Assembly (NCBI GenBank): GCA_037200965.1
Contig: JBBCGK010000001.1
Location: 832,001 to 896,000 of the forward strand
DNA: 64,000 nt
Reading direction: 5' to 3'
DNA from: a bacterium
GTDB lineage: Bacteria; Patescibacteriota; Minisyncoccia; Phycocordibacterales; Phycocordibacteraceae
Below, piece after piece: positions 3,520 through 56,365 of this stretch; position 1 is the first letter of the stretch, and every line of letters begins with the position of its first letter. The translations under genes were made by a program, and so were the position numbers. Below the pieces are notes generated by a model. The model was not told the DNA's origin and made no database searches. It saw nothing but the letters and a program-made list of their open reading frames with translations.

Positions 3520-3543
3520 CCGTTTTTTGGTATACTTTGGCGG

Positions 3544-4314: not shown

Positions 4315-4378
4315 CGAATTCGACTTTTCGGATACCGCATGGCATCCTGCGCTCGGGAAACAGTCCGGGGAGGACGCC

Positions 4379-4801
4379 ATGAAGCTTGCAAAAAGCGTTG
4401 TGGCGGCCTACCACAATGCATTCAATATCAAGTTTGCGCTGCCGTCAGCCGTTTGTAACGGCGCGATCGTGCTTGCGATCAACTGGCCGCATGGATCGAG
4501 CGAAGCCGCGTACGCGGGCCTGTGGCAGGCCTTCGCGTCGTTCTTCTCGACGGGTTTTACGGCGCGCGTCGTCCAGCACTTCTCGCCGATACAATCGCCG
4601 CTACCCGCGTACGCCTTGGGAAGCCTGATTCCCGCGGCGCTTACGTTCGGGATGAGCTTTGCCGCCCATTCCTATAACGGCACTAACGATCCGGTACTAA
4701 GCTCTTTGCCGGCAACGGCGATCAGCCTGGTCACGAGCGTCGGAACGAACTGGCTCACGCGCCGCGGATATCTGCTTCCGGGCAACTATCCGGAATCTTG
4801 A
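4379..4801 (+). CDS. Hypothetical membrane protein
   Basis: Hydrophobic ORF. The internal ATG at 4379 (MKLAKS...) was chosen because the longer ORF overlaps the upstream ATPase gene. Confidence 0.4.
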   Translation: MKLAKSVVAAYHNAFNIKFALPSAVCNGAIVLAINWPHGSSEAAYAGLWQAFASFFSTGFTARVVQHFSPIQSPLPAYALGSLIPAALTFGMSFAAHSYNGTNDPVLSSLPATAISLVTSVGTNWLTRRGYLLPGNYPES

Positions 4802-11347: not shown

Positions 11348-11935
11348 TTGATGAAGAGAATCGCGTACATCATTCCGGGGTACGGCGAATCTCACACAAG
11401 GCAACGCGGGTATGATGCTCTCGCCGAGATGTTCAAGGCGAAGGGAATTGTGCCCGTACATATAGAAATCGATTGGCACGGGAAGAAGCCATCCCGGTTC
11501 GGCGAATACGCCAAACAATTTCTGCAGCAGTACGAAAAGCCGCGGCAGACCGAAACATACATACTTGGCTTCTCGTTCGGGGCGATTATCGCGCTTATAA
11601 GCGCGAAGCAGGCGAAACCGACGAATCTTATCTTATGCTCGCCTTCTCCCTTTTTCACGGAAGATATGAAAACCTTCAAGCCCGCTTTGCGTAAATGGTG
11701 GAAAGAAAACTTCGTCGAAAGCGACTATTCATTCGACGCAATTGCCCCGATGATACGACAGAAGACCTATGTGATAGTGGGTGATAAGGAGGACGTCGAA
11801 TGCGGGAAGCGGGCGAGAGCTGCCAAGCGAAACATCAGGAACAGCCAGCTCGTAACTGCCAAAGGGGCGAAACACAATATAAGCCAGAAAGAGTACCTGG
11901 CAGCGGTTTGGAAGGTCGTCTCAAAACTGCGATGA
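11348..11935 (+). CDS. Alpha/beta hydrolase
   Basis: Nucleophile elbow GFSFG (GxSxG). Confidence 0.6.
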   Translation: MMKRIAYIIPGYGESHTRQRGYDALAEMFKAKGIVPVHIEIDWHGKKPSRFGEYAKQFLQQYEKPRQTETYILGFSFGAIIALISAKQAKPTNLILCSPSPFFTEDMKTFKPALRKWWKENFVESDYSFDAIAPMIRQKTYVIVGDKEDVECGKRARAAKRNIRNSQLVTAKGAKHNISQKEYLAAVWKVVSKLR

Positions 11936-12297
11936 AAACCTACAAAGCCATCTCGCTCAAGCAGCCGTTCGCGAACTGGGTCGCGGAAGGGAAGAAAACG
12001 ATCGAGACGAGGAAGTGGAATACGAAATACCGGGGCGACCTGGTAATTTGTTCTTCAAAAAAGCCCGCTATCGATCCGGCGGGCTATGCGCTTTGCCTCG
12101 TCGAGCTCTACGACACGTGGCCGATGCGCAAGGAAGACGAGACGGGCGCCTGCTGCAAGCTCTACGACGGCGCATACGCCTGGCTCATCCGGAATGTCCG
12201 GCCCATACATCCGCCGGTGCCCGTAAAAGGGCAGCTGAGTATCTTCGACTTCGAGCTTCCCCTGGGGTATGATGGAGTAAATAAAAACCCGGTTTAG
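11932..12297 (+). CDS. ASCH domain protein
   Basis: ISLKQPFANWVAEGKKTIETRKW. Start ATG overlaps the upstream stop (ATGA). Confidence 0.55.
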   Translation: MKTYKAISLKQPFANWVAEGKKTIETRKWNTKYRGDLVICSSKKPAIDPAGYALCLVELYDTWPMRKEDETGACCKLYDGAYAWLIRNVRPIHPPVPVKGQLSIFDFELPLGYDGVNKNPV

Positions 12298-12299
12298 CT

Positions 12300-12656
12300 A
12301 TGCCGTCTCTCAGAACTCCCGAAGTAGTCGCCAAATATCTTGCGCATCGGGAAAGCCGCAAAGGCAGTGATTCGTGCGAGCTATGCGAGAAGCTCGCGAC
12401 CAAAGAGTTTACCTATTGGAAAGTTGTTGAAAACGACTTCCCTTACGGACAGATCGCCAAGACGCACCATATGCTCGTGCCGCTCAGGCATACGACAGAA
12501 GACGGTCTCACCGACAGCGAGCTGGCGGAACAGAAGCTTATCAAACGCGGATTCGTGAACGAGGGATACGACTGGATCATCGAAGCGACGCACAAGAACA
12601 GGTCGATCCCGTCGCATTTCCATCTGCACCTTATCGTCCAGAAAGAATCCGCATGA
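12300..12656 (+). CDS. HIT-like hydrolase
   Basis: HFHLHLI histidine triad. CxxC near the N-terminus. Confidence 0.6.
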   Translation: MPSLRTPEVVAKYLAHRESRKGSDSCELCEKLATKEFTYWKVVENDFPYGQIAKTHHMLVPLRHTTEDGLTDSELAEQKLIKRGFVNEGYDWIIEATHKNRSIPSHFHLHLIVQKESA

Positions 12657-13303: not shown

Positions 13304-14689
13304 ATGGAAGACATCAAGGAGAAGTGCGGCGTCTTCGGGGTCTATGGCAGAGGACTCGAGGCCGCACGCCTTACCTTCTTCGGCCTCTTCGCGCTTCAGC
13401 ACCGCGGACAGGAAAGTTCGGGAATAACGGTTTCCGGCGGCGAGCGCCTCTTCTCGCACAAGGGCATGGGGCTCGTGATGCAGGTATTCGCGGAGAAGGA
13501 TATCGAGAATCTTGCGGGGCATGCGGCCATAGGCCATAACCGGTATTCGACGACGGGCGGGTCGCTTCCGGAGCATATCCAGCCGTTCGTGGTGCGCTCG
13601 GGTACGCTCGCACTCGCGCATAACGGCAACCTTCCGTCGACGAAGGCGCTTGAGGAGTTCCTCGCGAGCCGCGGAAAGAATGCCGCGGGCTTTTCCGATT
13701 CGAAGCTCATCATCGAGGCGATATCGGTATATATGGACGACGGGCTTTCCGTCGAGGATGCGATAGCGAAGACGTATCCCTTGATGACGGGCGCTTTTTC
13801 GATTGTTATCCTTACGCCCGACAAGTTGATCGCGCTTCGGGACAGCTACGGCATCCGCCCGCTCTCGCTTGCCCGCCTCAACGGCGGGTTTCTCGTCGCG
13901 TCGGAAACGTGCGCTTTTAATCCGATGGGCGCGGTCTTCGAGCGCGACGTGCGCCCGGGGGAAATGCTGGTGATAAGCGAAGCGGGGCTTATGAGCCGCC
14001 AGCTTGCGGAAGGGAAGGAACAGCTCGACGCGTTCGAATTCGTCTACTTCTCCCGCACCGACAGCGTGCTTATGGGCCGGTCGGTATACGAAGCGCGGCG
14101 GCGCTTCGGTGAAATACTCGCGCGAGAGGCGGACATCGAGGTCGATATCGTCGTGCCCATCCCCGAAACGGGAATTCCGGTCGCCGCGGGTTATGCCGCC
14201 GCGGCAGGCATCACGTATGAGCCCGCGCTCGCTAAAAGCCGCTATATCCAGCGCACGTTCATCGCGCCCGACCAGCATCTGCGCGAGCAGGGCGTGAAGA
14301 TGAAGCTGTCGGCGGTCGCTGATGCGATCAGGGGGAAGCGTGTCGCGATCGCCGACGACTCCATCGTGCGCGGCACGACCTCGAAGCAAATCGTCGCGAT
14401 GCTTTTTGAGGCCGGGGCGAAGGAGGTGCACTTCCTCGTCTCGTCGCCCCCGGTCCGTTTCCCTGATTTCTATGGCATCGATACCCCCAGGCAGGACAAG
14501 CTTCTCGCGGCGAACCATTCGATAGAGGAGATGCGGGAGTATCTTGGCGCGACGTCGCTCCATTTCCTCTCGGTCGGAGGGCTTATCGAAGGCATCGGTC
14601 TCCCGCGGGAAAGTCTCTGCCTCTCCTGCTTTACGGGCGAGTATCCCATAGACCTCGGGGAGAGAGCGGGCGAAGTGTCGTATCGGTAA
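13304..14689 (+). CDS. purF: Amidophosphoribosyltransferase (glutamine-PRPP amidotransferase)
   Basis: N-terminal Cys nucleophile MEDIKEKCGVFGV, FALQHRGQESSGI, and a PRTase domain. Confidence 0.9.
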   Translation: MEDIKEKCGVFGVYGRGLEAARLTFFGLFALQHRGQESSGITVSGGERLFSHKGMGLVMQVFAEKDIENLAGHAAIGHNRYSTTGGSLPEHIQPFVVRSGTLALAHNGNLPSTKALEEFLASRGKNAAGFSDSKLIIEAISVYMDDGLSVEDAIAKTYPLMTGAFSIVILTPDKLIALRDSYGIRPLSLARLNGGFLVASETCAFNPMGAVFERDVRPGEMLVISEAGLMSRQLAEGKEQLDAFEFVYFSRTDSVLMGRSVYEARRRFGEILAREADIEVDIVVPIPETGIPVAAGYAAAAGITYEPALAKSRYIQRTFIAPDQHLREQGVKMKLSAVADAIRGKRVAIADDSIVRGTTSKQIVAMLFEAGAKEVHFLVSSPPVRFPDFYGIDTPRQDKLLAANHSIEEMREYLGATSLHFLSVGGLIEGIGLPRESLCLSCFTGEYPIDLGERAGEVSYR

Positions 14690-41375: not shown

Positions 41376-43889
41376 ATGTCGCGGCCTCTAAAAAATAGAG
41401 AAGTCTTTTCGAAACTACTCAGCGCAGTTTCTTCAGAAGAGATAGCGTCTTTAATCGAAAACGAAGTCTTTTTTAAACCAGAAAATTGCAGATGGATTCC
41501 TTATGGAAGACGTGAGCTGAATGCCCCACAGATCGAGGGACAAATGAAAAGCTCAAGTAATGCGTTGGTAGAAAAAATCACCAATTCAACAGATGCTCTC
41601 CTAATGAGGCGATGCTATGAAGTCGAAGGGGTGGCACCTAATAGCGAAGACAAACGATTACCCAAGACTCTTTCTGAAGCAATTACAAAATATTTTGGAA
41701 GCGAAGAAGAAATAAATAAAAATCGAAGCGCATGGGCAAGACAGCATCTCATGGTTTTGGCTGAGGGTGATAAAAAGAGGCCAACAATTACTGTTATTGA
41801 TCGAGGCGAAGGACAAACTCCCAATAGAATTCAGGATACAATCGTTGGCTTGAGCGAGAGCATAAAGGAGAAAATAAATTTTGTTTTTGGTAAATACCAT
41901 CAAGGAGGGTCAGCCGCTATACGTTTTGCAGGTAGCAAAGCTAAGTGCTACCAGCTTGTCCTGTCCCGGCGCGCGGAGAGTATTGCCGATAAAGGTAAAG
42001 AAAATCCGTGGGGATTTACGTTGGTAAGGAAAAGTTTTAAAAACAGAGTTCCTTATTACGAATACTGCACAGACAAGGATGAAAACACCTTTTCTTTCCC
42101 GTACGATAAACCAATAAAAATTGATGGTCTGGAACTGGACTTTATCGATGGGTCACTTATCCGTATGTACGATTACTACTTGGATAATCCATCAAATATC
42201 ACTTTCGGGTTTCATTCACTGGCCTTCGATTTTGATCAAAAGTTACAGAAACCGCCACTCCCTATCTTTCTGCAAGATAAGAGAGGATGGAAAGGAGACA
42301 CTAAATATACAATTGCAGGCTTACTAAGGCGAATTGAGGATAATAAAAATATTATCAGCGATGATATTACCCTTCCTGCAGGTTTAGGAGAGATCGGAAC
42401 TCGCAATATCCGCTGCATTCGCTTGAAGCATATAAGCGATGCGGAAGGAGTAAAATCCTATAAAGAATTAAATCAGAAAATATTCTACCTGGAAAACGGT
42501 TTGGCTTTGGGATATGAGACCGAATCTTTTGTGCGAACAGATTGTCAGCTTCCCGCTCTGGCCCCCTATCTCCTCTGTTATATCGATATGTCTGATATTC
42601 CAGTTGAGTTGGTAAATATCTTTCACTCTGGAAGAGAAGAATTGGCTCGAACCGAGGATTATCACATCTTAAAAGATCGCCTAAAAAAGTTCTTTGAGAA
42701 TGAAGTCTTTGAGAAGTGGGATAGAGAATACCAAGAAAAAAGCTTGATCAATTCCAATGAGGATAATAAGGAACTCGATAAGCTCATTGAGAAGGCCATC
42801 GTCGATGATCCGGAACTCAAGGAGTTACTGGGTATTGGTGAAGAAATCAAGATCCCGAAGGGGAAAGAGGAGAATAAGGAGAAGTACATTGGCGAGGAAC
42901 ATCCAAAAATGTTTGAGCTTGTAGGGAGTCAACCAAAAGAGGTTGATAAATCTTCTTACGCCCTTATATCTTTTAAGACCGAGGCAGAAGATAAACTCTT
43001 TACTAGAAAAAAGAGCCGCTATTATATTGATTGGTCCAAAGATTCAACCATCCTTGATGTGGTGGTTCGTAGTATGAATAAAGGTATTGTGTCTTTGCGC
43101 GTGGATTGCAGGGAACATGCCAGCGTTGGCGATCAGGATAAGATTACTTTCACTCTGCTGGATTCTGAAAAAGTAAAAAAGTTTGAACAAATCGTTACAT
43201 TTAACGTAATTGAAACACCGCCTTATGAAGGTTCATATTTCCCAACGTACTTTAAGCCATTGAAGAAAACGCTGAAGATTCCATCGAAAACAAACAAAAA
43301 GTTTAGTTTTGCTACAGACGTTGCAAATGATTATTTCTCCAGAGAGGATGATCCTGGATTGTTTGAATTTGAAGATCGTGATGATCTGCGTTTAAAAAAG
43401 TCCCGTTTAAATGATGGCGTTCTCGAAATTACCTTTTATGCCGCTACTGAAAAGTTGGGGAAACTACCGGATGCTAAAGTAGTAATTAGCGATACTTCAA
43501 ATCATACGTTTGATATCTCTATACCCATCGAGATCGTCTCTCCCGAGGAGAGTTCCAGGCTTAACGAACCAAAGAGAAATCCTGTATATGAAAGAGACTG
43601 GCCCACTCACGGCTGGGATGAACATAGTATTGCCAGTGTTGATTCGTCCAGGACACAAGGCTTAATAGTAAATTTGAACGTAGATTCTAAGCCCTTGAAG
43701 GATTTAAAGAAAATGGTTGGCCTTGATAAAGTCGGAAGCGCAGAGAATAAATATATTGCCGATATTTACATTTATTCCCTCTATCTTTATTTTGAACTAA
43801 AAAATGATCCTGACAAGGATCGGGTTCTAGGTTCTGCAATGAAGGCTATTGGGAAGGCCCTTCCCGGAATGATAAGAAAAATCATTTAA
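41376..43889 (+). CDS. Large (837 aa) protein with an N-terminal GHKL (MutL/MORC/HATPase_c-like) ATPase domain; C-terminal ~600 aa unassigned
   Basis: Bergerat-fold motifs: N-box LVEKITNSTDAL (E..NS.DA), G1 box ITVIDRGEGQTP (DxGxG), G2-like FGKYHQGGSAAI. The gene is AT-rich and convergent with a DNA MTase. Confidence 0.6.
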   Translation: MSRPLKNREVFSKLLSAVSSEEIASLIENEVFFKPENCRWIPYGRRELNAPQIEGQMKSSSNALVEKITNSTDALLMRRCYEVEGVAPNSEDKRLPKTLSEAITKYFGSEEEINKNRSAWARQHLMVLAEGDKKRPTITVIDRGEGQTPNRIQDTIVGLSESIKEKINFVFGKYHQGGSAAIRFAGSKAKCYQLVLSRRAESIADKGKENPWGFTLVRKSFKNRVPYYEYCTDKDENTFSFPYDKPIKIDGLELDFIDGSLIRMYDYYLDNPSNITFGFHSLAFDFDQKLQKPPLPIFLQDKRGWKGDTKYTIAGLLRRIEDNKNIISDDITLPAGLGEIGTRNIRCIRLKHISDAEGVKSYKELNQKIFYLENGLALGYETESFVRTDCQLPALAPYLLCYIDMSDIPVELVNIFHSGREELARTEDYHILKDRLKKFFENEVFEKWDREYQEKSLINSNEDNKELDKLIEKAIVDDPELKELLGIGEEIKIPKGKEENKEKYIGEEHPKMFELVGSQPKEVDKSSYALISFKTEAEDKLFTRKKSRYYIDWSKDSTILDVVVRSMNKGIVSLRVDCREHASVGDQDKITFTLLDSEKVKKFEQIVTFNVIETPPYEGSYFPTYFKPLKKTLKIPSKTNKKFSFATDVANDYFSREDDPGLFEFEDRDDLRLKKSRLNDGVLEITFYAATEKLGKLPDAKVVISDTSNHTFDISIPIEIVSPEESSRLNEPKRNPVYERDWPTHGWDEHSIASVDSSRTQGLIVNLNVDSKPLKDLKKMVGLDKVGSAENKYIADIYIYSLYLYFELKNDPDKDRVLGSAMKAIGKALPGMIRKII

Positions 43890-45202
43890 TTCTTCTCCAT
43901 TACGACTATATATTCAAATTCATACGCACGAGTTTTTGAAGGATTGTCCATTCCAGTAAACTTTCCGCTTTCAGTATCACGCCACGGAGTTATCATTTTA
44001 TTTGGTATTTCCCGCTTAATAAAGTCTACGTTCGTAAAACCAGCGGCCTGCATCTGTTCTGCCGCCACCTGTGCGTTCTGAATTTCTACACCCCGAAGAC
44101 TTGTGTTTCCAATAATTACGCAAGCCTTCCCGCCCTTCTTAAGAATTCGATGAGCCTCGGCGAAGACTTTTTTCATATCTAGGAAGTAATTAGCAACGTC
44201 GATAGCAAGCGGGCGTTCAACTAGCATGAGATCGTCGACAATTTTCGCCCCTATGATGCTATTAAAATTGCCGGCCTTTTTGGTCTTTGAACTCGTACCA
44301 ATAAAAGTTCTGCGAAAATCTATGAAACTATTACTGAAGTGATGCCATTTCTTGAAGTGTTTAGCATCGTCCCCGAACCACAGCAACGTAAGCTGATGAA
44401 GATCAGCATACTCATAGGAAGTCACATAAGGCGGAGAAGTCACTATCAAGTCGATAGATTCGGATTTAATTGGGAATGTTTTGGTCGAATCTCGACGATA
44501 CATTTTTGTCGGGATGCTGATGCGTTTTGCTTCAGCTAGGTTGTTGTAAAATAAATCATTCTTTCTAATCATTGAATCCAGATGTCGAAGAAAGGACTGT
44601 TTAGGGACCGGTATGATCTTGTCTTTGTCAACTGTCGGCTTGATACTTTTCATTAACCATCGAGAGCAGTTTTTCAGGTTATGTGAGAAAGCGCACAAGA
44701 AAAATCTACGAACGTGCGGACTCTTAATTTTCTTTATTGCAAAGTAAATTCTATCGAGCTCAATAACGGTTTCCGCATCGAACCAATAAGTAATTCGAGC
44801 ATGATGTGGGCGAGAGACGCTCGGAGCTGCATCATAGTATTCCAAGAATCTCTCTTTATGATTTGCAAGTGTACGCGGCTTAATCGCGGTGGTCTTTGTT
44901 TGAGTGATTAACTTCGCAACTGGATTTATATCAAAGCCGATACTCGGATGTCCTAGTAACTTTGCTTCCACCAAAGTCGTGCCACACCCACCGAATGGAT
45001 CACAAACGACTTGTGTAGTATGCGGCGCGTAATCTTCAATCAATTTACGAACAATTTGCGGAATAAACTTTGCCGGGTAACGATGATAGTCGTGGGAAAA
45101 GGCAGTAGTTTGTGAGCGACCAATATCTCGAAAAGACCACTCTTCACGCGGTTGCAGGCTTAAAAAAGTATTTCGGATGTTTTCGATATCAACAGTGGCC
45201 AT
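43886..45202 (-). CDS. N6-adenine/N4-cytosine DNA methyltransferase
   Basis: Motif X/I YPAKFIPQIVRKLIEDYAPHTTQVVCDPFGGCGTT and motif IV LIVTSPPY. AT-rich. Start taken at MATVDIEN; the longer ORF runs to 45277. Confidence 0.8.
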   Translation of the reverse strand: MATVDIENIRNTFLSLQPREEWSFRDIGRSQTTAFSHDYHRYPAKFIPQIVRKLIEDYAPHTTQVVCDPFGGCGTTLVEAKLLGHPSIGFDINPVAKLITQTKTTAIKPRTLANHKERFLEYYDAAPSVSRPHHARITYWFDAETVIELDRIYFAIKKIKSPHVRRFFLCAFSHNLKNCSRWLMKSIKPTVDKDKIIPVPKQSFLRHLDSMIRKNDLFYNNLAEAKRISIPTKMYRRDSTKTFPIKSESIDLIVTSPPYVTSYEYADLHQLTLLWFGDDAKHFKKWHHFSNSFIDFRRTFIGTSSKTKKAGNFNSIIGAKIVDDLMLVERPLAIDVANYFLDMKKVFAEAHRILKKGGKACVIIGNTSLRGVEIQNAQVAAEQMQAAGFTNVDFIKREIPNKMITPWRDTESGKFTGMDNPSKTRAYEFEYIVVMEKN

Positions 45203-45352
45203 ACTAAGAGGTAGTATAAGGGCAGGCCGGAGACGATTCAAGCACATGTCGTGTGTTCTTTGGCCCGGAGGAGCCACAGCAGATTCCGAAGTACATACAA
45301 GCGGTATCTTCGGTTTATTCGATAATTATCACCACGCGCGTATAATGGCTGC

Positions 45353-46354
45353 ATGGCTAAACGGAAAAAGGACTCAGAGATACATATGCCCGTCGATGTC
45401 GTCGTGTACCAGGCCAAAAGCGGAGCTATCGAGCTGCGCGGCGATTTCAGCAGGGAAACGGTCTGGGCGACGCAGGCACAGATTGCAGAGGTTTTCGGCG
45501 TTGAGCGATCCGTCGTGACCAAGCACATCCGGAATATTCTCAAGGACAAGGAACTTGAGGAACGTTCAGTACGTGCAAAACTTGCACATACTGCCGGGGA
45601 CGGCAAGACGTACCAAGTCGAGCATTATAACCTCGATGCCATCATTTCCGTTGGATATCGCGTGAACTCAAAGACAGCCACGGCGTTCCGCCAGTGGGCG
45701 ACGAAGACCCTGCGCTCGCATATCGTCGAGGGCTATACGATCAACCGCGCCCGCGTCGCGAAGAACTACGACGCGTTCATACGCGCGGTCGGTGAGATCA
45801 AGGCGCTTTTGCCCTCCCGTGCCGCGATCGGGGACGCAGGCGTCCTTGAGCTTGTCGCATTTTTCGCAGACACCTGGCTGTCGCTCGATGCGTACGATCG
45901 CGAGCGCTTCGTCCCGGTCCGCACGACCCGCAAGAAGGTCGCGCTTACCGCCGACATCCTCATGCGGAGCGTCTCGGTCCTTAAGTCGGAACTCATCGCG
46001 CGCGGCGAAGCGTCGGAACTCTTCGCCGCCGAGCGGGAGGTGAAGGCCCTTGAAGGGATCGTCGGCAACGTCTTGCAGTCGTTTGGCGGAAAAGAGCTCT
46101 ATCCGAGCGTCGAGGAGAAGGCGGCGCACCTTCTTTATTTCATCGTGAAAAACCATCCGTTCGCAGGCGGCAATAAACGCACGGGCGCATACGCGTTCGT
46201 CTGGTTCCTTGACCGTGCGAAGGTACTGGACCGGGAACGCATTACCCCGAGCGCACTCACCGCGCTCACGCTGCTCGTCGCGGAGAGCGATCCGAAGGAG
46301 AAAGAACGCATTACCGGCCTCGTGACGATGCTTCTCGGGCTCTCAAAGAAATGA
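45353..46354 (+). CDS. RhuM-family N-terminal domain fused to a Fic/Doc domain
   Basis: The N-terminal IELRGDFSRETVWATQAQIAEVFGVERSVVTKHIRNI...YNLDAIISVGYRVNSKTATAFRQWAT matches RhuM. The C-terminal HPFAGGNKRTGAYAF matches the Doc-type HxFx(D/N)(A/G)NKR motif. Confidence 0.75.
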   Translation: MAKRKKDSEIHMPVDVVVYQAKSGAIELRGDFSRETVWATQAQIAEVFGVERSVVTKHIRNILKDKELEERSVRAKLAHTAGDGKTYQVEHYNLDAIISVGYRVNSKTATAFRQWATKTLRSHIVEGYTINRARVAKNYDAFIRAVGEIKALLPSRAAIGDAGVLELVAFFADTWLSLDAYDRERFVPVRTTRKKVALTADILMRSVSVLKSELIARGEASELFAAEREVKALEGIVGNVLQSFGGKELYPSVEEKAAHLLYFIVKNHPFAGGNKRTGAYAFVWFLDRAKVLDRERITPSALTALTLLVAESDPKEKERITGLVTMLLGLSKK

Positions 46355-46361
46355 CGGGTAT

Positions 46362-49147: not shown

Positions 49148-50152
49148 TTGAATTCTAGCTTGAAACGCAACAACCCGTATTGAAAAGCGCATACCCGCAG
49201 GTACGCTAGGAGTGTTGAATCACCTAAGCACCAACGGGTATGCATACACACAATACGCGCGACATGCGCGTTTCGCTAGGCGCGCTCCTGCGCGCTGGTG
49301 TGAAGAAAGCTGGGATCGCGCGGCAACTGGGCGTCCACCGCTCGACCATCTCAAGGGAGTTGAAACGGAACGCGAAGAAGAACGGGCGGTATCACGCCAC
49401 GCACGCGGACGTGCGTGCGAAGGCACGCCGCATGAAGAGCAAGGAGGCGGGACGCCTCCTTGCAAACAATCAGCAGTTGGCTGACCTTGTCGAGGCACTC
49501 CTTGACCCACTCGTCTCTCCAGAGGTGATCGCACACCTTCTCGACATATCGCACGAGACGATATACGCGTGGCTATATCGCACCCGTCCTGATCTGTTGG
49601 CTCGTCTGCCGCAGCGAGGAAGGAAGCGCCGCCGATATGGCTCAAAGCGTACGCAGAAACAAGGATGGACCAAGAACGTGCGTTCCATTGAGGAGCGCAC
49701 AGAACCTGGCTGGGAGGGCGATACCGTCAAAGGCGCAGGTCGTGAACGCATCCTCACCCACGTGCACCAGAGCTTGTATCTCGTTGCCGACCTAATCCCG
49801 AACGGCACGGCAGATGTCGTGCATGCGGTACTGAAGTCGCATCAGAAAGTCACCGGGACCATCACGTACGACCGCGGGAGCGAGTTCGCACTCTGGCAGT
49901 TCATTGAACGTGATACCGATGCCACCGTGTACTTCGCACACGCACACCATCCGTGGGAGCGCGGGAAGAACGAGAATACCAATGGCCGCCTGCGGCGACC
50001 ATTCCCCAAACGGCTGAACCTGGGTACCATATCCAAAGACGACCTTGCGGACGTGGTGGACCTCATGAACCACACGCCGCGGAAGTCTCTCTCCTGGCAG
50101 ACCTCGTGCGTGCGCTTTGGGAAGGCGTGTTGCGTTTCAGATTAGAATTCAA
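49148..50152 (+). mobile_element. IS30-family insertion sequence, apparently intact, with 25-26 bp imperfect terminal inverted repeats and possible GGG target duplication
   Basis: IRL 49148- TTGAATTCTAGCTTGAAACGCAACA. IRR, read as the reverse complement of 50128-50152, is TTGAATTCTAATCTGAAACGCAACA (22/25 identical). GGG runs flank both ends. Confidence 0.75.
49240..50145 (+). CDS. IS30 family transposase
   Basis: HTH ([20 protein letters not shown]). DDE core: [42 protein letters not shown]. Confidence 0.85.
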
Positions 50153-50222
50153 GGGGTCCTGTTGCGAGGATAGGCTATCTGTCGTATATTCAAGAGAACG
50201 GCCCGCGGGCCATTTTATTTTC

Positions 50223-52022
50223 ATGGAAATCCGAAACATCGCCATCATCGCGCACGTGGACCACGGCAAGACCACGCTCACTGACGCCCTCATGCGCCAG
50301 ACGGGGGCCGTGTCCGACGCGACGGTGTCGATGGACAACAACGCGCTCGAGCGCGAGCGAGGGATCACCATCTACGCGAAGAACACTTCGATCGAATACA
50401 AGGGAACGAAGATCAATATCGTCGACACCCCGGGACACGCGGACTTCGGCTCGGAAGTGGAGCGCGTGCTCCGCTCGATCGACTCGGTGCTTCTCGTCGT
50501 CGACGCCCAGGAAGGGCCGATGCCCCAGACGCGCTTCGTGCTCAAGAAATCGCTTGAACTCGGCCTCAAGCCGATCGTCGTGCTTAATAAGATCGACAAA
50601 CCGGCGGCTGATGCGGCGCGGGCCGAAGAGCAGGTTTTGGAACTCTTTCTTGAGCTCGGAGCCTCAGATGAACAGGCCAATTTCCCGGTCGTATACGCGA
50701 TCGGCCGCGAAGGCGTCGCGATGCGCAAACTTACCGACGAGAAGAAGGACCTCAGCCCGCTTCTCGACGTCGTCCTTGAGCACGTGCCTGCGACCTCTTC
50801 AACGGAGCTTTCCACGAAACCTTTGATACTCCAGCCGTTCAACCTCGGCTATGACAACTTCCTCGGCCGCATGGCCGTGGGCCGCATATACGAAGGAACG
50901 GTGCATCCGGGCGATGCCGTATTTGTCAAGAAGCCCGACGGCGCGACCAGGAGCGGCAAGCTCACCAAGGTTTTCACCTTCGTCGGTACCGAAAAGAAGG
51001 ACGTTCCCGAGGCGGTTGCGGGCGACATCGTCATGATCGCCGGACTGCCGGATATTTTCATCGGAGAAACCGTTACGACGAACGCGGATCAGGCTCCGCG
51101 TGCGGCAATCTCCATCGACGAGCCCACCATCACCCTTAACTTCCTCGTCAATAACTCGCCGTTCGCCGGGAAGGAAGGGAAGTACGTGACGAGCCGCCAG
51201 CTTCGCGAATACCTCGAGCGCGAGCTTGAGGTGAACGTCGGGCTCAAGGTCGACTTCATCTCCCCCGACAATTTCAAGGTCTCGGGCCGCGGCGAGCTCC
51301 ATATCGCCATCCTCCTTGAGAACATGCGCCGCGCCGGGTATGAAATGCAGGTCTCGCAGCCGCAGGTCATCATCCGCGAAGAGAACGGCGTGAAGCTCGA
51401 GCCGTTTGAGGAAGTGATCATCGATACCCCGAGCGAATATCAGGGAGCGATCATCGAGCGCCTCGGTACCCGCGCCTTCGTCCTCCAGAACCTCGTGCAG
51501 CACGACCAGAGCGTGCGCCTCACGCTCCTTGGCCCGACGCGCGGGCTTCTCGGATACCGGAACCAGTTCGTGATCGATACGCGCGGGGAAGGCATTCTCT
51601 CTTCGAGAGTCGTCGGATTCCAGCCGTACGCGGGCGAGATCAAGAAGCGGCAGGTGGGTTCGATGATCTCCATGGCCGGGGGAAAGACGCTCGGTTACTC
51701 GCTCGCGACGCTCCAGGAGCGCGGTGTGCTGTATGTCACTCCGGCAACGGAAGTGTATGAGGGCCAGGTGATCGGCAACACCTCGAAGGGCGAGGAGATG
51801 ATGGTGAACCCGACCAAGGGCAAGAACCAGTCGAACGTCCGCTCTTCGGGCACCGATGAGGCGATCAGCCTCGTGCCGCCATTCCTTATTACGATCGAGC
51901 GCGGACTCGAGATCATGGCCGAGGACGAATATCTCGAGATCACTCCCGAGAGCGTGCGCCTCCGGAAGCAATTTCTTACCGAGAACGACAGGGCCAAGGC
52001 GAAGCGGACGGATATCAAATAG
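50223..52022 (+). CDS. typA: Translational GTPase TypA/BipA
   Basis: G1 [26 protein letters not shown]-like C-terminal domains. Internal ATG at 50223 chosen because the upstream extension overlaps the IS30 element. Confidence 0.9.
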
Positions 52023-52078: not shown

Positions 52079-52507
52079 ATGATTTCTGACGAAGATATCG
52101 TCAAGCTCAAGAGAGAATTCGCTCCGGTCTTCGCCGGTCGGGAAGAATTTCTTGAGGTGAAGGCCGATGTCGGAGTGCTTAAGGTCGACGTTTCCGTGCT
52201 CAAGACCGATGTTGCCGTACTTAAGACGGATGTTGCCGAGCTTAAGACTGATACCGCGACCCTCAAGACCGACGTCGCAGAACTTAAGGTCGATGTCTCT
52301 ATTCTCAAAACCGACGTGGCGGACCTCAAGGTCGAAGTCGGAGAGATTGCCGATAAAATGGATACACTCCTTACGATGACGGACAAGATCGTGGGCGGAC
52401 TCGAACATGAACGGATGGAGAACGCCGCGGGCAATGAAATACTGTTCCGTCATACTCGCCAGATACAGGAACTTGCGCAGAAAACAGGCACCGCTCTTTC
52501 GGAATAG
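52079..52507 (+). CDS. Coiled-coil protein containing eight tandem heptad repeats (consensus xLKTDVA)
   Basis: VLKVDVS VLKTDVA VLKTDVA ELKTDTA TLKTDVA ELKVDVS ILKTDVA DLKVEVG, read from the translation. Confidence 0.55.
   Translation: MISDEDIVKLKREFAPVFAGREEFLEVKADVGVLKVDVSVLKTDVAVLKTDVAELKTDTATLKTDVAELKVDVSILKTDVADLKVEVGEIADKMDTLLTMTDKIVGGLEHERMENAAGNEILFRHTRQIQELAQKTGTALSE
52163..52330 (+). repeat. Imperfect 21-bp tandem repeat x8 inside the coiled-coil gene
   Basis: Units like gtgctcaagaccgatgttgcc / gtacttaagacggatgttgcc, read directly. Confidence 0.7.
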
Positions 52508-52587
52508 TTCTTCATCATTTCTTCCTGAAGGGAGGGTACACTAGAAGGGTGTGCCACAAGACTTACCCGCATTAAATTCCTTATCCT

Positions 52588-52740
52588 ATGCTCGTCACTA
52601 TCGCAGTCGTGCTTCTCGTTCTCTGGCTTCTCGGCCTCGTTACTTCCTACACCATCGGTGGCTTCATCCATATCCTCCTCGTGGTCGCCGTCATCATGAT
52701 CCTCATCCGGCTTATCCGGGGCGAAAATCCGATCGCCTAG
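52588..52740 (+). CDS. lmo0937-family small membrane protein (50 aa), below the ORF-track length cut-off
   Basis: MLVTIAVVLLVLWLLGLVTSYTIGGFIHILLVVAVIMILIRLIRGENPIA matches the small hydrophobic lmo0937/DUF5670 family pattern. Confidence 0.5.
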   Translation: MLVTIAVVLLVLWLLGLVTSYTIGGFIHILLVVAVIMILIRLIRGENPIA

Positions 52741-52942
52741 TTGCCAAAAGGGGCCTGTCCTGCTATACTCAGGGCACAACTTGCTTCAACGGTTTTCACC
52801 CCGGAATTCCCGGGAACCAGCTAGATAGCGCTCCACACTAGGGCGCAGAGCCCGAAAACTCACGAGACGGTTGTTTATTCTCGCGTTTTCGGGCTTTTGC
52901 GTTTTCATACGCTGCCCATTGGCGCATTCACCACACACAATC

Positions 52943-54289
52943 ATGTATCAACAGAATCCGAGCTACGGGAACTCCAGTCCCCGCCGCTCTTCGGGAGGAC
53001 GCCCCCAGGGAGGCAGCCGCTTCGGCGGAAACCGCGGAGGCGCGCCAAGCCACGGCAACAGAGGCTACGGAAGCAACCGCAGCGGCGCAAGCTACGGCGG
53101 AAGGCCTTCGTTTGGCGGCCGCCCGGGCGGCTCCCGCGGCGGCAAGGGCTTCCAGGAAATGCGCGTCGACCTCTCGAAGCTCATCAACAAGGCGGTCATC
53201 ACCGAGGAGGTCGAGCACTTCGTGCCCGAACACAAGTTCGCGGATTTCGACGTGGACCAGCGCCTCAAGGACAATATCGCGAAGAAGGGATACGAGCTCC
53301 CGACGCCGATCCAGGACCGCTCCATCCCGCACGTGCTTCGCGGCGAGGATATCGTCGGCATCGCAAACACCGGCACCGGAAAGACGGCGGCCTTTCTCAT
53401 CCCGCTCATCGACAAGGTACTCAAATCCCGCGCGCACGGCAGAAGAAGCTCGCGCGTCCTTATCATGGTGCCGACCCGCGAGCTCGCGCTCCAGATCGAC
53501 GCCGAATTCCTCGGCTTCACGAAGGGCCTCGGCCTCTATTCGGTCTGCTGCGTGGGCGGGGCGAACATCATGCCCCAGATCCGCGTGCTTAGGCGCGACC
53601 CGTCGTTTGTGATCGGCACTCCCGGACGCCTCAAAGACCTCATGGAGCGCAAGGAACTCGAGCTCCAACACTTCGGCACCGTCGTCCTCGACGAGGCGGA
53701 CCGCATGCTCGACATGGGTTTCATCCAGGACATGCGCTTCATCATGGCGAAGATGGAGAAGGAGCGGCACACGCTCTTCTTCTCCGCGACGCTCTCTTCG
53801 GAGATCGAGCGACTCATCGGCGAATTCCTCAAGTCGCCCGCGCGCGTCTCCGTCAAGACCCGCGACACGTCGAAGAATATCGACCAGGATGTCGTGCGCG
53901 TCTCCGAGGGCCAGTCGAAGATCGACGTGCTCCACGAGCTCGTCGCGCAGCCGGAATTCGAGAAGGTGCTTGTCTTCGGACGCACCAAGCACGGCGTCGA
54001 GAAGCTCATGGACGAGCTTAACCGACGCGGATTCCGCGCGGTCTCGATCCACGGCAACAAGACGCACGGCAACCGCCAGCGGGCCCTTGGCGACTTCAAG
54101 AGCGGCAAGGCGCAGATTATGGTGGCGACGGATGTCGCGGCCCGCGGCCTCGATATCCCGGATGTCTCGCACGTGATCAACTTCGACCTCCCCGGCACCT
54201 ACGAGGACTACGTCCACCGCATCGGCCGCACCGGACGCGCAAGCAAGAAAGGGAAGGCGCTGACCTTCATCGGGGGCGGGAAGTATTAA
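52943..54289 (+). CDS. DEAD-box ATP-dependent RNA helicase with an N-terminal Arg/Gly-rich (RGG-like) extension
   Basis: Q-motif region, AxTGTGKT-like GTGKTAAF, DEAD (VVLDEADRM), SAT, HRIGRTGRA. The N-terminal ~75 aa are RGG/GNRGG-rich. Start at the internal ATG 52943. Confidence 0.85.
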   Translation: MYQQNPSYGNSSPRRSSGGRPQGGSRFGGNRGGAPSHGNRGYGSNRSGASYGGRPSFGGRPGGSRGGKGFQEMRVDLSKLINKAVITEEVEHFVPEHKFADFDVDQRLKDNIAKKGYELPTPIQDRSIPHVLRGEDIVGIANTGTGKTAAFLIPLIDKVLKSRAHGRRSSRVLIMVPTRELALQIDAEFLGFTKGLGLYSVCCVGGANIMPQIRVLRRDPSFVIGTPGRLKDLMERKELELQHFGTVVLDEADRMLDMGFIQDMRFIMAKMEKERHTLFFSATLSSEIERLIGEFLKSPARVSVKTRDTSKNIDQDVVRVSEGQSKIDVLHELVAQPEFEKVLVFGRTKHGVEKLMDELNRRGFRAVSIHGNKTHGNRQRALGDFKSGKAQIMVATDVAARGLDIPDVSHVINFDLPGTYEDYVHRIGRTGRASKKGKALTFIGGGKY

Positions 54290-54435
54290 ACTTCACTGAT
54301 GTTATCAGGCGTCATAGGGTCATAATCAGACCCTTTTCGTATTTGAAAAGAATCTGATTCACATATCTTGCCTAATTGTGCTAAAGTCTTTCCGGAAGTC
54401 TCTTGCACTGGGTAGGGGGCAACAGGAGAATCGAT

Positions 54436-55326
54436 ATGATTCCGATGACAAATGCTGCGGGACAAGTGAAGCTTCCGCATGAAGTGGAACCGCTCCTTGC
54501 GCTTCCGTCCGACATTCTCCGCGCAGTCACGCTTGGTTCGTACACTCTCGAACCGCGCGCTGGCAATTCCGGCAACGTGTTTTGGGACGACGGCCTGAAC
54601 GACCCGACGTCGCTCAGTGCTCTTGGCTTGCCGAATCCAGGCATCGGGGAGGCGCTACGATTCCTGCCCGACCTCATCGACAAGATTCGGGCAAGCGGTA
54701 AGCGCGTACGTGTGAACATCGCGGGTTTCGATGTCGACGAATACCATGAACTTATCAAGGCGTGCGTCGGGATCCGGGTGGACGAGATTGAAATCAATCT
54801 CGGCTGTCCGAACGTGCGAAACGAAGGCGTTCAGAAGCCCATTTTCGCCTTCGATCCGGAACGTATCGCCGAGATCCTCACCATGGCGCACCGGGTATCC
54901 GGGACGCTTGGAGAACCGGATATTGCCGTTAAGCTCTCGCCGTACAGCGATCCGTTCTTTCTCGCGAAAGTCGCCGCAGTGCTGAGAACGCATCTGCACG
55001 CATACATGAAACTCGTGACGTGCAATACGTTTCCGAATGCGTATGGTTTCATCCGGCCGATGACGCCAGCGATTGACGCGAACGACGGGTATGCAGGGCT
55101 TGCCGGTCATGCCATGAAGCACGTTGCGCTCGGGCAGGTTCGGCAATTCTCGAGGCTCTTGCCGTCATTCGATATTGTCGGTGTCGGCGGGATAAGCGGC
55201 GGACGCGATCTTCGCGAGATGGAACTCGCGGGTGCGAAAGAGGCGCAGGTGGGTACGGCGTTTTTCACGCACGGCCCAAAGGCATTCCAGCGCGTCGCGA
55301 TGGAATACGCCGATCTGGTCGATTAG
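54436..55326 (+). CDS. pyrD: Class 1 dihydroorotate dehydrogenase family protein
   Basis: INLGCPNV, VKLSPY, KLVTCNT, GVGGISGG...QVGTAF align with DHOD 1A conserved blocks. AGGAG SD 8 nt upstream. Confidence 0.65.
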   Translation: MIPMTNAAGQVKLPHEVEPLLALPSDILRAVTLGSYTLEPRAGNSGNVFWDDGLNDPTSLSALGLPNPGIGEALRFLPDLIDKIRASGKRVRVNIAGFDVDEYHELIKACVGIRVDEIEINLGCPNVRNEGVQKPIFAFDPERIAEILTMAHRVSGTLGEPDIAVKLSPYSDPFFLAKVAAVLRTHLHAYMKLVTCNTFPNAYGFIRPMTPAIDANDGYAGLAGHAMKHVALGQVRQFSRLLPSFDIVGVGGISGGRDLREMELAGAKEAQVGTAFFTHGPKAFQRVAMEYADLVD

Positions 55327-55451
55327 ACCTTATGCGGCCATGTGGTGCGGCAGATCCCTCGGGATTGCCGCACCCTCTCTTTTTGTCTTTGCTTGTGATA
55401 AGGTGCATGCGGTCATAAGACCTTTTCGCAATCCAACCACAGGAGGCTCAG

Positions 55452-56058
55452 GTGGCTTTGCAACCGATCACTATCAGGCGTCCCGCGGACATGCACGTTG
55501 CATTTCCGCGAAGGCCGTGTCCTCACATCGGTCGTGCCGGAGACGGCGCGGCACTTCGACATTGCAGTCGCGATGCCGAACCTCGTTCCTCCGATCACCG
55601 ATCCGGCAGCGGCGCGGGCATATTGCGACGGGATCCGGGCCGCGGCGCGGGATCTCAATGAGAATTTCCGTCCGCTCGGCATCGCATACCTTACGGACAA
55701 TCTCCCGGCTGAGGTTCTTCGGGATGGTTTCCGCATTCATAACAACGAGGGCGATCGCAGCTGGTATGCCGCCAAGCTCTATCCCGCGAACGCGACGACC
55801 AACTCGGCACTCGGCGTCTCGGGTATCGAGAATATCTATCCGTTGCTTGAAACCATGGAAGAGATCGTCCCGTTCTACCACAGAGATCTCGGATTCGCGC
55901 CGAAGTTCCCGCGCGTGGTCGGTTACGTTCGCAATTCTGGGTTAAGGAACAAAGCGTGCGAGTGGAGCCGCCCGGCAGTCCCGGACGGCTTCTCGCTTTT
56001 AGGTTTAAAAGATTCTTTCATCCACTATACTCCGGAAAGCCTCAGCGTATCTTCATGA
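55452..56058 (+). pseudogene. pyrC: Dihydroorotase (E. coli-type pyrC) remnant: frameshifted near codon 15 and truncated after ~200 aa
   Basis: Frame A reads LQPITIRRPADMHV, then frame B continues HFREGRVLTSVVPETARHFDIAVAMPNLVPPITD...AAKLYPANATTNSALGVSGIENIYPLLETMEEI. This matches PyrC IRRPDDWHLHLRDG...AIVMPNLAPPVTT...AAKLYPANATTNSSHGVTS. A 1-nt insertion lies at ~55497. The C-terminal ~150 aa are absent. Confidence 0.6.
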
Positions 56059-56092
56059 ACATGGGGTATACTTTCCTGACAGCCCCGGGACC

Positions 56093-56365
56093 ATGGACCA
56101 ATTCCTCAAGATGGACATCTTCTTCTTCGTGACGACCGTCGTGGTCCTCGCGGCTGGCGTGCTCCTGTGCTTCGCGCTCTACTACCTCGTCCGCATTCTC
56201 CGGAACGTCGAGAAGGTCTCGGAAGAGATCGAGGAGGAAACGAGAGCGGTGCGCGAAGATATTCGCGATGCGCGGGCAAACATCAGAAACGAGGGCTTCA
56301 AGCTGAAGCACCTCACTGCGCTTGCGCGCAAGGCGGGCGAACGGCTCTTCAAAGCGAAAAAATAG
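56093..56365 (+). CDS. Small membrane protein
   Basis: One TM helix followed by a charged helix. Confidence 0.4.
   Translation: MDQFLKMDIFFFVTTVVVLAAGVLLCFALYYLVRILRNVEKVSEEIEEETRAVREDIRDARANIRNEGFKLKHLTALARKAGERLFKAKK

Follow-up and report, generated by a model that had tools for sequence, protein, structure and literature searches.

The closest described systems for this locus are the class 1A dihydroorotate dehydrogenases (DHODs) and the E. coli-type class II homodimeric PyrC dihydroorotases (TIGR00856). Class 1A DHODs, such as L. lactis DHODA (1dor/1jqx) and T. cruzi DHODH (2e6f/3w1a), have a TIM-barrel DHO_dh domain, a catalytic cysteine (Cys130 equivalent) in an NLGCPN motif, and the residues Asn127, Asn132, Lys164, and Asn193, all of which have counterparts in the PyrD of the window (the whole 64-kb stretch of DNA that was analyzed), at an identity of only about 25–30%. 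Class 1A DHODs pass electrons from dihydroorotate to fumarate or O2. Their Asn67 is hydrogen-bonded twice to the ring of orotate, and in one such enzyme it is the residue whose hydrogen bonds add most to orotate binding (PMC4427443). E. coli-type PyrC aligns over residues ~8–133 to a remnant 3′ of pyrD at 49% identity, and the HxH motif, MPNL(V/A)PP, and AAKLYPANATTN with the carbamylated lysine occur in both. Unlike E. coli-type PyrC, the window gene has a frameshift in HxH, lacks 218 internal codons, and has lost its stop.

The gene order in the window is DEAD-box helicase gene, pyrD, pyrC pseudogene, and 90-aa gene, which places the pyrD–pyrC slot between the helicase and the 90-aa gene. 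The preferred reading, with a probability of about 0.9, is that this is a pyrD-then-pyrC pyrimidine cassette in a small Paceibacteria-type (CPR) genome and that its pyrC is a genuine, fairly recent pseudogene. As to the lineage, TypA gave its best named hits in Minisyncoccia, Paceibacterota, and Parcubacteria. Inactivation of pyrC beside a still-open pyrD, as the original prediction proposed, is borne out by multiple independent lesions in four assemblies and by an intact ortholog in a relative. This instance of gene decay is an ordinary one, though cleanly documented. The following parts of the former pyrC are retained:

55441..55446, + strand: Shine-Dalgarno sequence AGGAGG of the former pyrC (from the sequence; conserved in L005)
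55452..55497, + strand: pyrC pseudogene segment 1, with GTG start, VALQPITIRRPADMH(V), and the first His of HxH (alignments)
55500..55866, + strand: pyrC pseudogene segment 2, HFREG...AAKLYPANATTN...LLETMEEI, corresponding to E. coli PyrC residues 18–133 (tblastn, TIGR00856)
55774..55776, + strand: retained AAG codon of the presumed carbamylated Lys (Lys102 equivalent; alignments)
55868..55941, + strand: native PyrC C-terminal tail in the reading frame, VPFYHRDLGFAPKFPRVVG followed by 6 codons that have diverged (17/19 aa identical to the L005 C-terminus)

The DNA 3′ of pyrD is, as first proposed, homologous to E. coli-type PyrC: residues 18–133 of the E. coli protein match the window with 49% identity (tblastn, E=2e-24), and the NCBIfam model TIGR00856 (pyrC_dimer) matches over positions 12–126 of 341 (E=4e-24). 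The score of the remnant, 85.1 bits, lies below the equivalog cutoff of 292.95. With the frameshift corrected, the retained N-terminal part (segments 1 and 2, 138 codons) has 83% amino acid identity to the PyrC of the relative L005, where the start codon is ATG and not GTG. The motif AAKLYP is kept in the alignment to E. coli PyrC, and we take its lysine (codon 55774–55776) to be the equivalent of the carbamylated Lys102. Used as a protein query, the frame-repaired remnant retrieved only its own entry and PyrC proteins of ordinary length (~340 aa) at 51–58% identity; the L005 ortholog was not listed. No other PyrC-like sequence was found in the 64-kb window by tblastn with E. coli PyrC. Clear homology combined with disabling lesions relative to an intact ortholog marks the window pyrC, on sequence grounds, as a pseudogene derived from the TIGR00856 family and not a functional member of it. 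GenBank calls a 174-aa ORF (P0121) at this place, for which neither the source nor Pfam gives a name or domain.

The damage was judged against the intact 381-aa PyrC ortholog of the relative (L004/L005) and comprises three lesions, namely a T insertion in HxH, a 654-nt deletion, and a stop loss:

55498..55499, + strand: +1 frameshift in HxH, TT versus a single T in the intact ortholog (DNA alignment with L005)
55857..55867, + strand: deletion junction GGAAGAGATCG, with 11-nt microhomology (two overlapping blastn segments)
55942..55944, + strand: stop-codon loss, TGA to TTA (codon-by-codon alignment of the last 8 codons)
55945..56058, + strand: read-through tail, 37 sense codons long and closed by a TGA stop at 56056–56058, former 3′ untranslated DNA (RNA fold, L094 homology)

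The insertion splits HxH as originally described: the frame from the GTG at 55452 runs through MHV, HFREG follows in the next frame, and opposite ATGCATGT-GCATTTC of the intact relative the window has ATGCACGTTGCATTTC, with an extra T. Both histidine codons are therefore present, separated by the frameshift at 55498/55499, and the frame from the native start ends at 55661 after 69 codons. In place of the supposed truncation of the C-terminus, the gene has lost 654 nt (218 codons) from its interior, in frame, so that MEEI runs directly into VPFYHRDLGFAPKFPRVVG, the sequence with which the intact ortholog ends. In blastn, window positions 54411–55867 correspond to L005 2299–3765 and window positions 55857–55923 to L005 4409–4475, the two segments overlapping by 11 nt. 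The intact ortholog carries the junction motif twice, as GGAAGAGATCG and GGAAGAAGTCG, bordering the 654 nt that are absent from the window; loss between two imperfect 11-nt direct repeats may thus have occurred by slipped-strand or microhomology-mediated deletion. The deleted codons encoded the core of the barrel, and among them are the counterparts of the catalytic Asp250 and of two distal metal ligands, His139 and His177, all three of which are present in L005 and other relatives. The expectation that metal-site residues were missing thus held for these three positions and failed for the carbamylated lysine. Either the frameshift or the deletion alone would be expected to abolish the predicted dihydroorotase activity.

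Because TGA has become TTA, the pyrC frame reads on to 56058. The stop loss would let it run through the old terminator: the tail crosses a terminator-like hairpin at 55958–55996, followed by TTTT (fold of 55945–56010, −26.0 kcal/mol), and ends within intergenic DNA common to L094. The gap from the ORF end at 56058 to the next ATG at 56093 is short, as had been noted, and counts 34 rather than 35 nt.

The lesions could be illusory if the frameshift were a consensus error and the deletion an assembly collapse in a genome that has a full-length pyrC. Single-base indels are frequent among consensus errors, the window is drawn from a 960-kb contig, and two Logan contigs stop near the cassette borders (54205/54211 and 56053), which indicates some assembly-graph complexity; a search of these borders for repeats as a possible cause of the contig ends found none. 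This scenario is nevertheless extremely improbable. The window sequence recurs without gaps in a second NCBI assembly, which differs from it at 3 SNPs in 8.9 kb, and in two Logan assemblies built independently from the short reads of different runs, and the extra T and the deletion junction are the same in all four (window, L001, L002, and L003), which argues against a sequencing error, the explanation that would have overturned the original prediction. The inserted base lengthens a single T to TT, at a site with no long homopolymer, and three lesions plus the divergent last codons would all need to be errors. Indirect cross-assembly agreement, with at least one assembly a different consensus, thus indicates that the lesions are real.

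A second objection to the pseudogene reading is that the shortened ORF may encode a functional product, either a noncatalytic PyrC-derived protein or a new small protein made by frameshifting or from an internal start. In Pseudomonas, inactive PyrC′ subunits support aspartate transcarbamoylase. The Shine-Dalgarno sequence and start codon are kept, the deletion is exactly in frame with an in-frame C-terminal tail, dN/dS is 0.16, and GenBank calls the 174-aa ORF; given the good Shine-Dalgarno sequence, the start codon, and the low dN/dS, a peptide of 69 aa or of ~174–186 aa could be expressed. A function for it is very unlikely, however, since the frameshift brings a ribosome that began at the native start to a stop after 69 codons, visual inspection found no slippery heptamer at the frameshift site, two thirds of the TIM barrel are missing from the remainder, the tail arises by reading through a terminator hairpin, and the short form has no relative in the database except the same locus. 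The low dN/dS is itself expected of a young pseudogene across a long branch.

Comparison of the locus in relatives, which the original prediction had called for, revealed an intact 381-aa PyrC beside an 86%-identical PyrD in L004/L005, and all metal ligands of the L005 protein are in place when it is aligned to E. coli PyrC. The order pyrD then pyrC occurs in 5 of the 5 closer relatives examined. Over its full length, L005 PyrC is 47–49% identical to proteobacterial PyrC and 30–38% identical to other CPR PyrC proteins; these values would fit a foreign (proteobacterial) origin of pyrC but do not establish it, as the CPR copies are all mutually divergent. Relative to L005, dN/dS is 0.158 for the retained N-terminal part of pyrC and 0.084 for pyrD. 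The value for the remnant suggests that pyrC evolved mostly under constraint and died recently, and its inactivation was probably a recent event. A scan of public genome contigs for close relatives returned none closer than 42% among the matches listed, and in scans of metagenome contigs neither a DNA pattern spanning the frameshift nor the PyrD protein gave a match. Keyword searches of the literature on pyrD and pyrC in CPR bacteria found nothing specific.

The upstream pyrD is open and has its own candidate expression signals:

54358..54387, + strand: promoter-like site TTCACA-18-TAAAGT, with TG before the second hexamer (consensus scan, pattern match only)
54424..54429, + strand: Shine-Dalgarno sequence AGGAGA, 6 nt 5′ of the pyrD ATG (read from the sequence)
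54436..55326, + strand: pyrD, a 296-aa open DHOD-family gene of a class-1A-like K12/G34 subfamily (Pfam, NCBIfam, and PDB matches)
54616..54618, + strand: AGT (Ser) as codon 61, aligned with the universal Asn that binds orotate (alignment to 1jqx)
55344..55390, + strand: terminator-like hairpin and U-tract between pyrD and pyrC (fold −24.8 kcal/mol, z=−2.8)

The good Shine-Dalgarno sequence ascribed to pyrD is present as AGGAGA. The claim that the product has all class-1 DHOD blocks is correct as regards the DHO_dh domain and the class-1A matches and incorrect at two positions, where Gly replaces Lys43 and Ser replaces Asn67. Pfam DHO_dh recognizes the product at 113 bits (gathering cutoff 27), and its PDB matches are class-1A DHOD structures. 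The top NCBIfam match, the class-1A dihydroorotate oxidase PRK02506, reaches 132.5 bits against a cutoff of 301, and the product scores under every NCBIfam equivalog cutoff. The residues N121, C124, N126, K166, and N197, which are invariant across the DHOD family, are all in window PyrD. Unlike class 1A DHODs, window PyrD lacks the first N-terminal strand, its match to the Pfam profile beginning at position 14. The exact protein is present in 4 assemblies. A relative-rate test for pyrD, with 10 private changes against 4 (chi2 2.6), gave no significant acceleration on the window branch. The hairpin between pyrD and pyrC is kept in L005 (−33.4 kcal/mol, z=−5.2), where the stem bases differ and pairing is preserved. 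The gene is open and shaped by purifying selection; it has a promoter-like site to itself, and the terminator-like hairpin that sets it apart from pyrC is conserved.

In class 1A DHODs, Lys43 binds the orotate carboxylate; the corresponding residue of window PyrD is Gly34, and Gly is found here subfamily-wide. A near-invariant, compensating Lys at position 12 characterizes the subfamily and is not a feature of class 1A DHODs. All 27 other subfamily loci have Gly at the Lys43 position together with Lys at position 12, whereas nearly all canonical DHOD loci have Lys at the former and none at the latter. Besides CPR bacteria, some Actinomycetota and Alphaproteobacteria have the K12/G34 subfamily, and no published description of it was found, without a targeted literature search. 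Other members adjoin pyrB, pyrF, a pyrE-like phosphoribosyltransferase gene, or another dihydroorotase gene. Because these neighbors are pyrimidine genes, genomic context supports the assignment of the subfamily as true PyrD, with a putative role in dihydroorotate oxidation.

Window PyrD itself departs from the family at an otherwise near-universal position. Ser61 aligns to Asn67 of the L. lactis and T. cruzi enzymes, codon 61 being AGT in the window and AAT (Asn) in the relative. Asn occupies this position in 39 of 39 family members and, among 92 sequences (the window plus fetched loci), in 90, with Gln in 1 and Ser in the window genome alone. This private N61S change suggests that window pyrD may already be impaired or under relaxed selection, a reading that turns on one residue; a private change at an otherwise invariant column is also seen in 9 of 40 family members. 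A more far-reaching proposal would treat the family as an undescribed DHOD subfamily in which the carboxylate-binding lysine moved from the β2 position (Lys43) to the N-terminal loop (Lys12), with Asn61 to Ser, after the loss of pyrC, as a substrate change and early neofunctionalization rather than decay. This proposal is quite unlikely.

The preferred reading of pyrC as a pseudogene leaves several accounts of what the loss means for the pathway. Redundancy may have driven it: with another dihydroorotase elsewhere in the genome, pyrC would be dispensable, pyrD essential, and the pathway kept. An Amidohydro_1-type dihydroorotase does adjoin the same DHOD subfamily in L025 (Saccharibacteria), and the strong purifying selection on pyrD, its lack of significant acceleration, and its own promoter-like site and terminator fit such a scenario. 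This account is rather unlikely, as pyrB, pyrE(-like), pyrF, and Amidohydro_1-type dihydroorotase genes gave no matches at E<=0.01 in the 64-kb window, and the private N61S in pyrD speaks against strict constraint. Also against it, 93% of Patescibacteria genomes are reported to be without de novo nucleotide synthesis, the genes for which are scattered in distribution across the group (bioRxiv 10.64898/2026.06.21.733656). A wider loss of de novo pyrimidine synthesis in this genome is plausible. The purF gene said to be retained is represented by a purF-like gene at 13304–14689, and an Rfam scan of the 64-kb window returned tRNA-Thr only, with no pyrimidine leader or riboswitch found.

The surroundings of the cassette bear on another account:

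54292..56035, no strand assigned: variable cargo segment with pyrD and the pyrC pseudogene (absent from L094 between syntenic flanks)

In blastn, the window matches L094 at 52509–54291 and 56040–56233 and not in between; homology restarts at ~56036–56040, 3′ of the pyrC remnant, and an aspartokinase-like gene takes the place of the pyrD–pyrC segment. Comparison of the alternative slot contents of the window and L094 found no similarity. L095 and L096 have different genes 3′ of the DEAD-box helicase than the window. The slot that holds pyrD and the pyrC pseudogene is variable between syntenic relatives, with unrelated genes in three of them (L094, L095, and L096), and homology to the intact L005 cassette extends only from window position 54411 to ~55957, the flanks being unrelated. 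The cassette may therefore have been relocated or transferred from a related Paceibacterium, never have been needed, and now be eroding, with no long-standing pathway lost; given the variable slot, decay of relocated or acquired cargo is as good a framing as pathway loss. At synonymous sites, core genes have diverged further from L094 (1.4–1.6) than the cassette has from L005 (0.9 and 0.57), a contrast that may simply reflect L004/L005 being a closer relative than L094. Neither mobile-element genes nor flanking repeats were found around the cassette, and pyrD overall is still under strong purifying selection, which leaves this account possible but, like redundancy, rather unlikely.

The locus offers a base-resolved example of a biosynthetic gene caught soon after inactivation in a Patescibacteria/CPR genome, and points to one concrete route of loss, by short-repeat deletion and small indels within a cargo slot of variable content. 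The public annotation is corrected in that the 174-aa ORF P0121 is a pyrC remnant, and the metabolic consequence of the pyrC loss hinges on the rest of the genome.

Pseudogenes of reductive evolution in host-dependent bacteria have their classic cases in Mycobacterium leprae, Sodalis, and Rickettsia. As in those cases, a biosynthetic gene of the window has been broken through small indels and the loss of DNA between short direct repeats, beside a neighbor that stayed open, and the organism likewise belongs to a group mostly without de novo nucleotide synthesis. The window case differs from them in being a single locus, and one that sits in a variable cargo slot.

The PyrC-like sequence 3′ of pyrD is split over two overlapping frames: the one opening at GTG 55452 begins with VALQPITIRRPADMHV, and the one from 55498 reads HFREGRVL...MPNLVPPITD...AAKLYPANATTN...LLETMEEI. 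Residues 18-133 of E. coli PyrC align to this remnant with 49% identity (tblastn, E=2e-24), and the TIGR00856 match is confined to positions 12-126 of 341; as a sequence resemblance, this is far beyond chance. No other PyrC-like sequence was found in the 64-kb window with the same query. In the public annotation the remnant is a 174-aa ORF with no name or domain from the source or Pfam, which its assignment as a pyrC pseudogene (ΨpyrC) corrects.

Comparison with relatives, as the original prediction proposed, finds an 86%-identical PyrD followed by a full-length 381-aa PyrC in other metagenomes (L004-L007), but the shape of the truncation had been misread. In base-level alignment with the intact reference locus L005, ΨpyrC starts with GTG versus ATG, with an AGGAGG Shine-Dalgarno sequence kept in both. 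The features of the locus are:

5′ of pyrD, + strand: promoter-like site (pattern match)
54436-55326, + strand: pyrD ORF, 296 aa, with AGGAGA six bases upstream
55498/55499, + strand: one extra T (GTT versus GT in the ortholog) between the HxH His codons, by alignment to L005
55942-55944, + strand: stop loss (TTA versus TGA in the ortholog), by codon-for-codon alignment with L005
55958-55996, + strand: terminator-like hairpin followed by TTTT, crossed by the read-through frame

The extra T confirms the predicted location of the frameshift, inside HxH. Window 54411-55867 corresponds to L005 2299-3765 and window 55857-55923 to L005 4409-4475, which leaves ΨpyrC short of 654 internal nt, an in-frame loss of 218 codons. 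The deletion ends overlap in the 11-nt motif GGAAGAGATCG, which the ortholog has at both edges with 9/11 bases identical. In the protein alignment, MEEI is joined straight to VPFYHRDLGFAPKFPRVVG, the native PyrC C-terminus, and the presumed C-terminal truncation is thus an internal deletion. E. coli PyrC has a carbamylated lysine, the distal metal ligands His139 and His177, and the catalytic Asp250. The loss spans the equivalents of residues ~134-331, including these last three, as had been predicted, whereas the codon of the carbamylated lysine, also reported missing, is retained (55774-55776). With TGA changed to TTA, the frame runs on for 37 sense codons to TGA 56056-56058. The short ORF is unlikely to be functional, since its native frame ends at 69 codons, it lacks two thirds of the barrel, and its tail reads through a terminator. 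The evidence best supports a recent pseudogene that would have arisen by repeat-mediated internal deletion, 1-nt insertion, and stop-codon loss, in whichever order.

It is very unlikely that an assembly or sequencing artefact produced these changes, because three independent lesions are the same in four assemblies. A 960-kb contig, a second NCBI assembly (GCA_015655515.1), and two Logan assemblies each encode the exact window PyrD protein. The second assembly (L001) is 99.97% identical to the window over 8.9 kb, with three substitutions and zero gaps, and the Logan contigs (L002, L003), assembled independently from short reads of two separate runs, match it at 100% identity over 54205/54211-56053. 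The deletion junction is common to all three, as is the extra T, which makes the sequencing error that the original prediction had allowed for very unlikely. One of the three substitutions, at window 55493 (L001 position 5058; ATG to ATT), falls in the remnant five bases before the frameshift and is not statistically notable. Between the window and L005, dN/dS is 0.158 (dS 0.57) for the retained N-terminal part of pyrC and 0.13 for its short C-terminal tail; because the remnant still looks constrained over so long a branch, inactivation was probably recent relative to this divergence.

By the same comparison, pyrD is open and strongly constrained (dN/dS 0.084, dS 0.90), and a relative-rate test gave no significant acceleration on the window pyrD branch (10 versus 4 private changes, chi2 2.6). 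Both the window and L005 keep a hairpin and U-tract between pyrD and pyrC, in which stem bases differ but still pair; together with the promoter-like site, they imply that pyrD expression need not depend on pyrC. The protein scores 113 bits against Pfam DHO_dh (gathering score 27), and its best NCBIfam model is class-1A dihydroorotate oxidase, at 132 bits, far under the equivalog cutoff of 301. The nearest solved structures are class-1A dihydroorotate dehydrogenases (DHODs) of Streptococcus, Lactococcus, and Trypanosoma. Its good Shine-Dalgarno sequence is as predicted; the class-1 blocks, described as complete, depart at two sites, with Gly34 at the Lys43 position and Ser61 at that of Asn67.

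The counterpart of Gly34 in L. lactis DHODA is Lys43. Among 92 PyrD-family sequences (the window and fetched loci), two near-exclusive states occur: Lys12+Gly34, which the window shares with 27 other loci (L004-L029 and L040, set against L030-L093), and non-Lys12+Lys34, in nearly all canonical class-1A genes. The Lys12+Gly34 subfamily spans CPR bacteria, some Actinomycetota (Frankia and others), and Alphaproteobacteria, and lies below every NCBIfam equivalog cutoff; it looks like a distinct subfamily in which the substrate-carboxylate-binding lysine has migrated within the sequence. Intact pyrC is directly 3′ of pyrD in 5/5 closer relatives and adjoins it in 6/17 more distant subfamily loci, while others place the DHOD beside pyrB (L018, L023), pyrF (L022, L029), a pyrE-like phosphoribosyltransferase (L016), or an Amidohydro_1-type dihydroorotase (L025). 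By genomic context, these neighbors support the subfamily as true PyrD.

Ser61 (AGT; AAT in the closest relative) stands where each of the 39 family members aligned with it has Asn; the larger set of 92 sequences has 90 Asn, one Gln, and no Ser besides that of the window. Ser61 aligns with class-1A Asn67, which forms two hydrogen bonds with the orotate ring and, in T. cruzi DHODH, contributes the largest interaction energy (PMC4427443). The change is of the kind expected if selection on pyrD relaxed once pyrC died, although 9/40 members of the family differ privately somewhere among the otherwise invariant columns, and a single such change is weak evidence on pyrD decay.

The best named matches of TypA (49953-52022) belong to Minisyncoccia, Paceibacterota, and Parcubacteria, which marks the organism as a Patescibacteria/CPR bacterium. 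The syntenic relative L094 (TypA 95% identical) matches the window to the DEAD-box helicase stop (54291) and resumes from 56040, with an aspartokinase-like gene on the opposite strand in between (L094 14967-16424 versus window 54292-56035). This slot, between the helicase gene and a 90-aa membrane-protein gene, differs again in L095 and L096, the latter with a GDSL lipase and an Exo_endo_phos gene. Homology to the intact L004/L005 cassette is limited to 54411-~55957, with unrelated flanks. Given these differences, the pyrD-ΨpyrC pair is cargo in a variable slot, which shows neither mobile-element genes nor flanking repeats. Alternatively, and compatibly with pseudogenisation, the pyrD-pyrC cassette may have been relocated or acquired and be eroding; cassette dS versus L005 (0.9, 0.57) is lower than core-gene dS versus L094 (1.4-1.6), but L004/L005 and L094 are perhaps different organisms, so this contrast does not distinguish relocation from lateral transfer.

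Both Logan contigs stop at the same positions (54205/54211 and 56053), near the slot borders, where the assembly graph may branch because co-occurring strains carry different slot content. Directly after typA, L094 has an IS200-like (Y1_Tnp) transposase gene (11813-12496) that the window lacks; the window has there a 142-aa repeat-rich coiled-coil-like ORF (52079-52507). A low-GC block at 41376-46361 (39-49% versus ~58% elsewhere) encodes an 837-aa ORF without Pfam match, an N6/N4 DNA methylase (minus strand), and a RhuM/Fic protein; since L094 lacks all of it, the block probably represents a mobile or defence island. An endosialidase-chaperone (Peptidase_S74) domain ORF and a PKD/TIG/peptidoglycan-binding surface protein lie at 8-1468 and 5528-6763.

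The original observation stands with corrected anatomy, and its interpretation is supported in part: it is plausible that de novo pyrimidine synthesis is in the course of being lost. No other pyr genes lie within the 64-kb window; a second dihydroorotase encoded elsewhere in the genome may have made pyrC redundant, which is likewise compatible with pseudogenisation. A purF-like gene (13304-14689) and purC near typA in L096 indicate that parts of purine synthesis persist in this lineage. De novo nucleotide synthesis is reported absent from 93% of Patescibacteria genomes, with scattered genes (bioRxiv 10.64898/2026.06.21.733656).

ΨpyrC is an ordinary kind of feature in a fresh instance, and its modest interest lies mainly in the detail with which it captures gene loss in a CPR genome and in the corrected annotation. 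The L005 PyrC (3351-4496) is 47-49% identical to proteobacterial PyrC and only 30-38% identical to PyrC encoded next to Lys12+Gly34 DHODs of other CPR genomes, and has a C-terminal insertion and extension of ~20 residues; a xenologous replacement is possible. Compared with E. coli PyrC, this intact 381-aa protein has every metal ligand present.
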